Virus record (IMG/VR): IMGVR_UViG_2526164601_000045 | Length of the DNA: 6,232 nt | From: a virus | Taxonomy: Duplodnaviria > Heunggongvirae > Uroviricota > Caudoviricetes | Strand: one strand, 5' to 3' | Part shown: positions 3,572 to 3,841 of the stretch, one piece after another | How positions within the stretch are numbered: the stretch's first letter is position 1 | How the letters are laid out: each line of letters starts with the position of its first letter | Translations under genes and position numbers: made by a program | The notes under the pieces: generated by a model | What the model was told of the DNA's origin: nothing | What the model saw: only the letters and a program-made list of their open reading frames with translations | The model's database searches: none

Positions 3572-3841
3572 ATGAATATACTAAAAAAACTTATGCAGCG
3601 TCTGTGTGGTTGCGGAAAGCATGATGACCGTGAAAACGGGGAGTTACTTACAGCACAGCTGCGACTGGGACCGGCAGACATTCTGGAGTCCGATGAGAAT
3701 GGCATTATCCCGGAGCAGGCCAGGGTAATCACGCAGGTGGTGATACTGGATGCGGATAAAAAGCAGATACAGTGCGTGGTAAGACCGCTGCAAATCCTGC
3801 GTGCTGACGGGACGTGGGAAAATATTGGCGGGATGAAGTAA
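3572..3841 (+). CDS. 89-aa protein resembling the C-terminal domain of the upstream tail fibre; function unknown, possibly a fibre-associated or assembly factor
   Basis: ATG at 3572 lies 1 nt after the stf stop (TGAcATG) and is preceded by AGGAG (3561-3565). The product from residue 33 (LGPADILESDENGIIP...ITQVVILD...RPLQILRADGTWENIGG) aligns with the fibre C-terminal domain ([16 protein letters not shown]...ITGLTFLD...[17 protein letters not shown]). The longer ORF-track version from 3440 is an out-of-frame read-through of the stf 3' end and is rejected. Confidence 0.7.
   Translation: MNILKKLMQRLCGCGKHDDRENGELLTAQLRLGPADILESDENGIIPEQARVITQVVILDADKKQIQCVVRPLQILRADGTWENIGGMK

Follow-up and report, generated by a model that had tools for sequence, protein, structure and literature searches.

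The stretch of DNA analysed here (the window: 6,232 nucleotides, IMG/VR record IMGVR_UViG_2526164601_000045) spans the distal part of the late region in a lambda-like (lambdoid) prophage of an EHEC/EPEC-type attaching-effacing Escherichia coli. It begins with the 3' end of J (22-1502), whose product has the Pfam tail-tip and GpJ_C domains, followed by lom (1571-2197) and by stf, a side tail fibre gene of the EPclA type (2257-3570, plus strand). The 437-codon stf specifies, in order, a PfN domain, a coiled coil, collagen repeats, and a PfC knob, and matches the Pfam families PF08400, PF01391, and PF06820. The knob (PF06820, Phage_fiber_C) is encoded by the plus strand at 3343-3534, corresponding to residues 165 to 228 of the 2851-3567 translation (E = 6e-35). 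Next comes a small gene of 89 codons for amino acids (3572-3841, plus strand), recognised from the ORF list, PHROG 576, and its PGAP name. Its first 27 codons (3572-3652, plus strand) encode an N-terminal tail that lacks fibre homology and is under relaxed constraint; the other 62 (3653-3838, plus strand) encode a PfC knob of its own (PF06820, residues 28 to 89, E = 1e-34). A hairpin resembling an intrinsic terminator, with an 11-bp stem and then a T run, lies directly 3' of the small gene (3856-3881, plus strand). Effector cargo sits downstream of this hairpin: tccP2, on the opposite strand (3967-4578) and with three EspF-type repeats, and after it a second cargo ORF of 402 codons, also on the opposite strand, with no family match. 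The small gene is the last one before tccP2. Among the matches listed, homology between prophages stops at about position 3885 in many, and in others it extends until either the locus or the query ends.

The nearest complete relative is a bovine E. coli chromosome, NZ_CP074756.1 (99.4% identity), in which PGAP gives the order gpJ, Ail/Lom, 437-aa fibre, 89-aa small protein, and tccP2. The fibre is labelled there as a "prophage tail fiber N-terminal domain-containing protein" and the 89-aa protein as a "phage tail fiber C-terminal domain-containing protein". Comparison with this chromosome reveals three differences in the tail genes of the window. The stf gene, about 99.4% identical to the intact 437-aa gene, has an in-frame TAA at 2770-2772, in its coiled-coil part, produced by a C-to-A change at 2771 relative to the TCA of NZ_CP074756.1. 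Single nucleotides are also missing from J near 706, which shifts the frame, and from the end of lom, near 2179. Either this prophage is tail-defective or these are sequence errors. The small gene is intact in the window and differs from that of NZ_CP074756.1 by one base (3651). Because its stf is interrupted by a stop, the small gene may do nothing in this particular prophage. The in-frame TAA had been overlooked in the preliminary description of the window.

That description took the small gene to be a diverged copy of the fibre's own C-terminal domain, with homology over about 60 residues at 40-45% identity by eye. The homology and its extent hold, and the identity is slightly lower than estimated: BLASTP aligns the small protein with the fibre C-terminus at 23 of 62 identical residues (37%), with 61% positives and E = 1e-12. 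The Smith-Waterman score is 108, far above that of 5000 shuffled sequences (23.1 +/- 4.0, maximum 50; z = 21). The Pfam family that, according to that description, might cover both segments proves to be PF06820; it matches the small protein with 119.2 bits and the fibre with 119.8 bits, in each case over the whole 64-position model and with a gathering cut-off of 25 bits. The DNA segments encoding the two knobs are only 58.5% identical over 195 nt, and thus the duplication is old, as had been surmised. Homology to the fibre sets in precisely at the boundary between the collagen repeats and the knob ("GE..Q.R.(R)LGP"). The first 22 to 27 residues of the small protein, which contain a CGCG motif with two cysteines, have no counterpart in the fibre. 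The PF06820 domain makes up nearly the whole of a stand-alone 89-aa protein with its own start, rather than the C-terminus of a fibre, and this is a departure in architecture, not in homology.

The junction between the two genes is compact. The fibre gene ends with a TGA at 3568-3570, a single base follows, and the ATG of the small gene starts at 3572, giving a TGA-C-ATG arrangement (3568-3574, plus strand). An AGGAG Shine-Dalgarno (SD) site, read from the sequence at 3561-3565 (plus strand) within the last stf codons, lies 6 nt upstream of this ATG. The small gene therefore has the ribosome binding site of its own that the first inspection had assigned to it, and it occupies the slot immediately 3' of stf in which lambda has tfa. 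Judged from the nucleotide sequence, the arrangement permits translational coupling.

The gene itself is already described or annotated: it is represented by ORF68 of phage Sp5 (Mondal et al. 2016), by PF06820, by PHROG 576 (E = 6.9e-60, residues 1-89 on profile positions 1-89 of 89), and by a PGAP name. Mondal et al. 2016 (PMC5155283) made in-frame deletions of Sp5 genes without known function; the fibre gene, ORF67, is essential, and ORF68 is listed among the non-essential late genes. These authors described ORF68 as a small polypeptide consisting of the phage fibre C-terminus domain and proposed that it is a "reservoir" for the tip; they also reported that no frameshift-prone sequence was found (PMC5155283). 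The fibre is better characterised. Ghosh et al. 2012 (PMC3368898) showed that EPclA, a protein of 437 aa with a 111-residue collagen domain, is a trimer and that the isolated PfC domain (7 kDa) trimerises as well. In their work Col-PfC refolded rapidly, with PfC, a domain of low helix content, nucleating the collagen helix. The available portions of that paper mention no helper protein; the downstream gene is not discussed in it (PMC3368898). No functional study came up for the Sakai and EDL933 copies when the literature was searched by locus tag.

The linkage between the fibre knob and the small gene is invariant. Eighty viral contigs were retrieved by the fibre knob alone, and 74 of them extend far enough downstream. 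Each of the 74 has the small gene 1 nt beyond the fibre stop, in 70 cases intact, in 3 frameshifted, and in 1 interrupted. Start, SD site, and length are conserved among the intact copies (70/74). The pair is thus kept in syntenic prophages, and a loss of the small gene from such prophages, which the first inspection had named as evidence against its reading, is not seen in this sample. Among 5426 complete E. coli genomes, fibre-knob DNA is found in 697, at 6159 places, and the small gene in 698, at 6814 places, with a median of 10-11 copies of each per carrying genome; it is the same genomes that carry the two segments. The pair also crosses morphotypes. The podovirus PA16, which is Sp5-like, has a fibre knob 95% and a small protein 93% identical in amino acid sequence to those of the window, and the same TGA-C-ATG junction with its 1-nt spacing, here after a 645-aa fibre. 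PA16 is 62,708 bp long, the same as Sp5.

Beyond these phages the family is very narrow. A HMMER search over 1.84 billion cluster representatives gave 88 matches, nearly all of them E. coli fragments. Across the searches, the named matches beyond E. coli are from E. albertii and Citrobacter rodentium. Among GTDB species representatives, only E. albertii and two probable contaminant contigs were matched. The protein-homologue search, which used short queries, returned short proteins only, and long fibres with the small knob could not appear in it. A few long proteins have weak repeated matches, such as one (P0237) with four PfC-like modules and collagen.

The small gene belongs to a fixed 3' cassette, made up of the end of the collagen shaft, PfC, and the small gene, which is exchanged between lambda-like siphovirus prophages and podoviruses of the phi24B/Sp5 type. 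Because the tails that share this cassette are otherwise unrelated, the partner of the small protein must lie within the cassette, that is, in the distal fibre, or in the host. Prophage P-EibA offers a counterpart: its EPclC fibre has a non-PfC end, and an unrelated DUF4376 protein follows in the same slot. The content of the slot after stf therefore follows the tip type.

Selection was assessed by the Nei-Gojobori method on 152 pairs of fibre end and small gene, representing 99 distinct haplotypes. In these multi-copy, recombining prophage genes, whose sequences are not independent, piN/piS is 0.062 for the 62 codons of the small knob (piS 0.135), 0.32 for the 27 N-terminal codons of the small gene (piS 0.184), 0.27 for the last 79 codons of the fibre (piS 0.115), and 0.28 for the fibre knob core (piS 0.132). 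The constraint on the stand-alone knob is thus 4-5 times that on the knob of the fibre, with the same reservation that the prophage copies are non-independent. Raw counts from an earlier, smaller set of 75 aligned copies agree: the small knob has 20 synonymous and 8 non-synonymous polymorphisms, against 9 and 18 for the small N-terminal tail and 21 and 21 for the fibre end. Purifying selection on the small knob is strong, and since its piS is no lower than that of the fibre knob, the constraint acts on the protein and not on the DNA.

Evidence that the protein is made comes from the homologue in phi24B, gp59. In the virion proteome supplement of a cryo-EM preprint on this phage (2026), the peptides ADGTWENIGGMK and VITQVVILDADKK map to gp59. 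Both are exact substrings of the small protein of the window, and they are unique to the homologue of the small ORF. The supplement gives at least 3 counts per gp59 peptide versus as many as about 180 for the fibre peptides with the highest counts, and among the peptides listed there gp59 reaches, per residue, only a few per cent of the fibre counts. The protein is thus made, but purified virions hold no more than traces of it or carry it only loosely; a contaminant would give similarly low counts. The proteomics database of that study included entries named "Fusion_6159_FS1/FS2", one of them annotated "Spike or just gp59?". No peptide spanning the junction of the fibre and the small ORF is among those listed in the supplement. 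Of the fibre (gp61), no more than the first 141 residues are resolved in the preprint, and AlphaFold gave its authors no confident model of the fibre C-terminal domain. They argue that this domain does not bind BamA and ask what purpose the conserved lateral fibres serve; the small protein is not mentioned in the main text.

Structure predictions for the two knobs are of low confidence. The AF2 monomer of the small protein reaches a pLDDT of 52.6 and that of the fibre knob one of 57.0, low values attributable to the shallow alignments that so tiny a family provides. In the low-confidence model of the small protein, a helix (residues 3-11) and a disordered stretch (12-26) would precede six short strands forming an all-beta knob. 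Foldseek searches with these models returned no credible match (best E 2.3 in the PDB and 0.22 in BFVD), and a sequence search of the PDB found no relative. At E<=0.1, PF06820 is the sole Pfam match for the small protein, with no tail-fibre assembly family among the hits, and NCBIfam has no match for it. The PADLOC anti-phage defence models give no match at E<=0.01, and a reading as a defence protein was set aside. A phage lipoprotein that blocks a receptor, like T5 Llp or Cor, was likewise considered and rejected: the N-terminus, MNILKKLMQRLCGCGK, has by eye no lipobox and no signal-peptide-like hydrophobic core of 7 or more residues.

Together, strong purifying selection, linkage across phage morphotypes, and the translation evidence from phi24B argue for a working accessory protein and against a chaperone or spare DNA; a functional accessory protein is probable. 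As to its kind, we tentatively favour, with a confidence somewhat short of even, a real late gene under selection whose product is a dispensable accessory knob that comes with the fibre-tip cassette. The small protein is a shaft-less PfC copy behind a short, variable N-terminal tail. In such a scheme it would form a homotrimeric knob of its own, as the fibre's PfC does, and its variable tail would dock loosely on the distal knob of the fibre. The docked knob would add a second, highly conserved binding surface and so act as an optional tip adaptor or adhesin, an accessory specific to the PfC tip type and dispensable. The loose docking of the small knob on the fibre tip is, taken by itself, a possibility that we regard as rather doubtful. 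A bolder version, in which the small knob is a detachable second tip whose N-terminal tail plugs into the fibre knob and whose almost invariant surface binds a conserved host ligand, is unlikely. If true, the detachable tip would give the phage a two-layer, exchangeable receptor-binding end. To our knowledge, a design in which a paralogue of the tip serves as adaptor has not been described for phage fibres.

Several other explanations deserve consideration. The first is that of a tip-specific assembly helper, Tfa-like in function, which would aid the folding, registration, or attachment of the fibre knob and raise the yield without being strictly required. The gene sits in the tfa slot, it is always found with a PfC tip, and other tips have a different gene there; moreover, the junction permits coupled translation and would thereby supply the two products in matched amounts. 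On the other hand, PF06820 is the only Pfam match, recombinant EPclA and isolated PfC form trimers with no helper mentioned in the available portions of the report (PMC3368898), and Sp5 needs ORF67, whereas its ORF68 is listed as non-essential. The pattern of variation also points the other way: the small knob is near-invariant while the fibre knob varies, yet a chaperone gripping the tip should co-vary with it. A helper of this modest kind is distinctly unlikely. For the same reasons, namely the lack of an assembly-family match, the trimer reported without a helper in what is available of that source, the non-essential ORF68, and the invariance of the small knob, an obligate Tfa-like chaperone is unlikely too, and the chaperone that the preliminary description had offered as one option is weakened.

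A second alternative is the reservoir, an idea of the group that deleted the Sp5 homologue (Mondal et al. 2016, PMC5155283). Here the gene would be spare DNA that replaces the fibre tip by recombination or deletion, and its product would be incidental. A short direct repeat in the window could serve such an event: the sequence at 3111-3124 (plus strand), in the collagen region, recurs at 3664-3677, at the start of the small knob, with 13 of 14 nt identical and in the same codon phase. One fusion of the expected form exists. On a draft contig represented in 2 samples (L082), a protein (P0066) is the product of an exact in-frame deletion between the repeat copies, falling at an 11-nt identity inside the 13/14-nt repeat, which joins collagen directly to the small knob. 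However, this junction lies near the edge of a short-read draft contig and is the best match in no complete E. coli genome, all matches listed being two-piece ones that reflect the normal arrangement, and so the fusion is rare or an artefact. A second chimera (P0185, contig L083) was considered as an exchange between the paralogues and rejected; it is a plain 279-nt tandem duplication, whose junction, from nt 119 of the small gene to nt -159 of the fibre, does not keep to the register of the homology. With only 58.5% DNA identity between the knobs, efficient homologous exchange is in any case disfavoured. The small gene, moreover, has its own SD site and start and is translated in phi24B, and a piN/piS of 0.06 with a normal piS, albeit measured on non-independent copies, indicates constant selection on the protein. 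The reservoir explanation is therefore improbable, and the displaced tip module that had been suggested at first is weakened by the same strong purifying selection. Protein-level selection, the conserved SD site and start, and the translation evidence make it unlikely that either a silent reservoir or a relic is the main role of the gene.

A soluble knob released at lysis is a live alternative, one that we consider quite improbable. Trimers set free in this way would act as decoys or mask receptors, binding to debris, vesicles, or neighbouring lysogens and shifting the adsorption of the progeny. This would suit a late product that has no shaft and is present in at most trace amounts in purified virions, and the highly conserved surface suggests a conserved ligand. 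Because the protein has, by eye, neither a signal peptide nor a lipobox-type leader, a decoy could act only after lysis. Competition with the fibre for the same receptor is not expected, since the two knobs differ at 63% of positions. A decoy would also block productive hosts, and the idea has no experimental hint in its favour.

Another reading has the small ORF translated as part of the fibre, through a +1 shift or recoding at GAA-TGA-C that would yield a fibre with two tandem knobs. The small ORF is indeed in the +1 frame, 1 nt after the TGA-C, with AGGAG just upstream, and a TGA-C stop with an upstream SD-like AGGAG loosely recalls the prfB site. The authors of the phi24B preprint placed the fusion models mentioned above in their database, and yet the peptides listed in their supplement include none from the junction. 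Mondal et al. found no frameshift-prone sequence (PMC5155283), and the sequence itself implies that GAA could not re-pair at +1 and that the distance to the SD site does not suit a mechanism like that of prfB. The small gene has its own ATG and SD site, and the N-terminal tail evolves as a coding sequence. As a general explanation recoding is very improbable; a covalent double-knob fibre made in this way would be a rarer variant of the two-layer tip. Fragments of fibre genes often lie downstream of phage fibre genes, and a decaying, functionless relic of a former fibre end would fit the dispensability of the Sp5 homologue and the 4 broken copies among 74, but strong purifying selection, 70 of 74 copies intact with conserved start, SD site, and length, homology that starts exactly at a domain boundary, and translation in phi24B make it highly improbable.

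The accessory knob thus remains the reading we prefer. The present analysis changes the standing of a gene whose existence was already known from that of a non-essential oddity to that of a gene selection cares about. The collagen-like fibre cassette occurs about 10 times per EHEC/EPEC genome, and in clinically important Stx phages it forms the tips of the lateral fibres. What these lateral fibres bind, and what role they have in the spread of the phages, is a question raised by the phi24B authors. A small, strongly conserved paralogue of the tip, encoded in many copies, would provide a handle on it, being easy to express, delete, and probe.

Comparison with known systems sets the small gene apart from most of them. 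Diversity-generating retroelements (DGR), the Mu G and P1 C segments likewise have a second tip-coding copy beside the fibre gene; the small gene differs in having the same orientation as the fibre gene, only 58.5% DNA identity to it, and its own start and SD site. A DGR was rejected on these grounds, because the knobs are not near-identical (58.5%) and because the ORF list of the window, together with Pfam searches of its main genes, contains no RT-like gene. An invertible segment of the Mu G, P1 C, or e14 kind was rejected as well, since the copy has the same orientation and the window holds neither inverted repeats flanking it nor an invertase. The sole inverted pair found, 2332-2351 and 3125-3144, is unrelated to the knobs.

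Two systems share the position of the small gene. Lambda Tfa, Mu gpU, and T-even gp38, which are tail-fibre assembly proteins and tip adhesins, are encoded in the same slot after the fibre gene, and the small gene, like them, travels with the tip type. The small protein is unrelated in sequence to these families and is a paralogue of the tip itself; its Sp5 homologue, moreover, is not required for infectious particles, and EPclA is a trimer without it. In P-EibA, ORF-191A (DUF4376, PF14301) likewise sits directly after a PfN/collagen fibre in a J-lom-stf setting, but this protein is unrelated and does not resemble the EPclC fibre that it follows.

The closest likeness is to the fibre knobs and to the copies in Stx phages. 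The PfC of EPclA and EPclB is the same full-model Pfam domain as that of the small protein and an autonomous trimerisation module with little helix, which agrees with the all-beta knob of the low-confidence AF2 model. Compared with these PfC domains, the small protein is 37% identical, has no collagen shaft, and carries a novel 27-residue N-terminal tail. Sp5 ORF68 (O157:H7 Sakai), phi24B gp59, and PHROG 576 are of the same family, with 89 aa and the same junction after a collagen-like fibre. However, Sp5 and phi24B are short-tailed Stx phages, whereas the window comes from a lambda-like siphovirus prophage with J, lom, and stf; the fibre upstream is EPclA (437 codons) in the window and EPclB (645 aa) in the Sp5-type copies; and the small gene of the window, unlike those of Sp5 and phi24B, is the last gene before effector cargo (tccP2).

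Two loci carry rearrangements that involve the small gene (3572-3841) and the side tail fibre gene stf (2257-3570). The collagen region of the fibre gene (3111-3124) and the start of the small-gene knob (3664-3677) share a 13/14-nt direct repeat, and its two copies have the same codon phase. One draft contig (locus L082, 1-335) carries an exact in-frame deletion between these copies, the product of which is a short fibre whose tip is the knob of the small gene. A second rearrangement, a 279-nt tandem duplication at locus L083 (2697-3246), takes in the end of the fibre gene and the first part of the small gene. 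It yields a 92-residue chimera, in which the N-terminal tail of the small protein is joined to the latter half of the fibre knob. The chimera is flanked by the fibre gene on one side and a normal small gene on the other; a SopA/NleL-like effector lies downstream of the duplication.

The tail genes of the prophage itself differ at three sites from those of the nearest complete relative, the E. coli chromosome NZ_CP074756.1 (99.4% identical). At 2770-2772 the coiled-coil part of stf has an in-frame TAA, in place of which the relative carries TCA (Ser). Unless this is a sequence error, the fibre ends after 171 residues. Relative to the same chromosome, there are also 1-base deletions at about 706 and about 2179. 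One shifts the frame of J, leaving ORFs 22-780 and 732-1502 in different frames, and the other changes the final codons of lom. The prophage looks tail-defective, the alternative being indel errors in the assembly.

P0237, a 565-residue protein of the representative library, carries a tandem array of four modules, each about 70 residues long and closing with a PfC-like 'GILRVRQADGTWKEIPA' motif; collagen repeats come after the array. Possibly the protein belongs to another phage group and represents a distant relative of the PfC fold in repeated form. The small gene is present at 93% identity on a 725-bp contig of the Xanthomonas pisi DSM 18956 assembly, and a Clostridiales MAG contig has a match 37% identical to the small protein. 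These two matches (loci L084 and L086) most likely reflect contamination of the assemblies by E. coli prophage.

In many of the listed loci, prophage homology stops directly past a terminator-like hairpin 3' of the small gene (region 3856-3885), which appears to mark the junction where differing effector cargo is attached: tccP2 in the window, NleL-like genes elsewhere. Here, tccP2 (3967-4578, minus strand) encodes 203 residues with three 47-residue EspF-type proline-rich repeats, versus about six repeats and 345 residues in the nearest relative; this is repeat-number variation in the Tir-cytoskeleton coupling effector. A 402-codon ORF (5024-6232, minus strand) has no match in Pfam, NCBIfam or PADLOC. 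Most genomes label it "hypothetical protein"; in NZ_AP027176.1 the label is "avirulence protein". Its place in the effector cargo region, adjoining tccP2, makes it a candidate type III effector, perhaps EspV.

In the short-tailed Stx phage phi24B, where the small-gene homologue is gp59, the lateral fibres bend back toward the capsid, and the tip of the central needle bears a globular density without assignment (10.64898/2026.04.10.717836). In the phi24B proteome the small protein is not abundant enough to fill this density stoichiometrically, a point on which the authors are silent.
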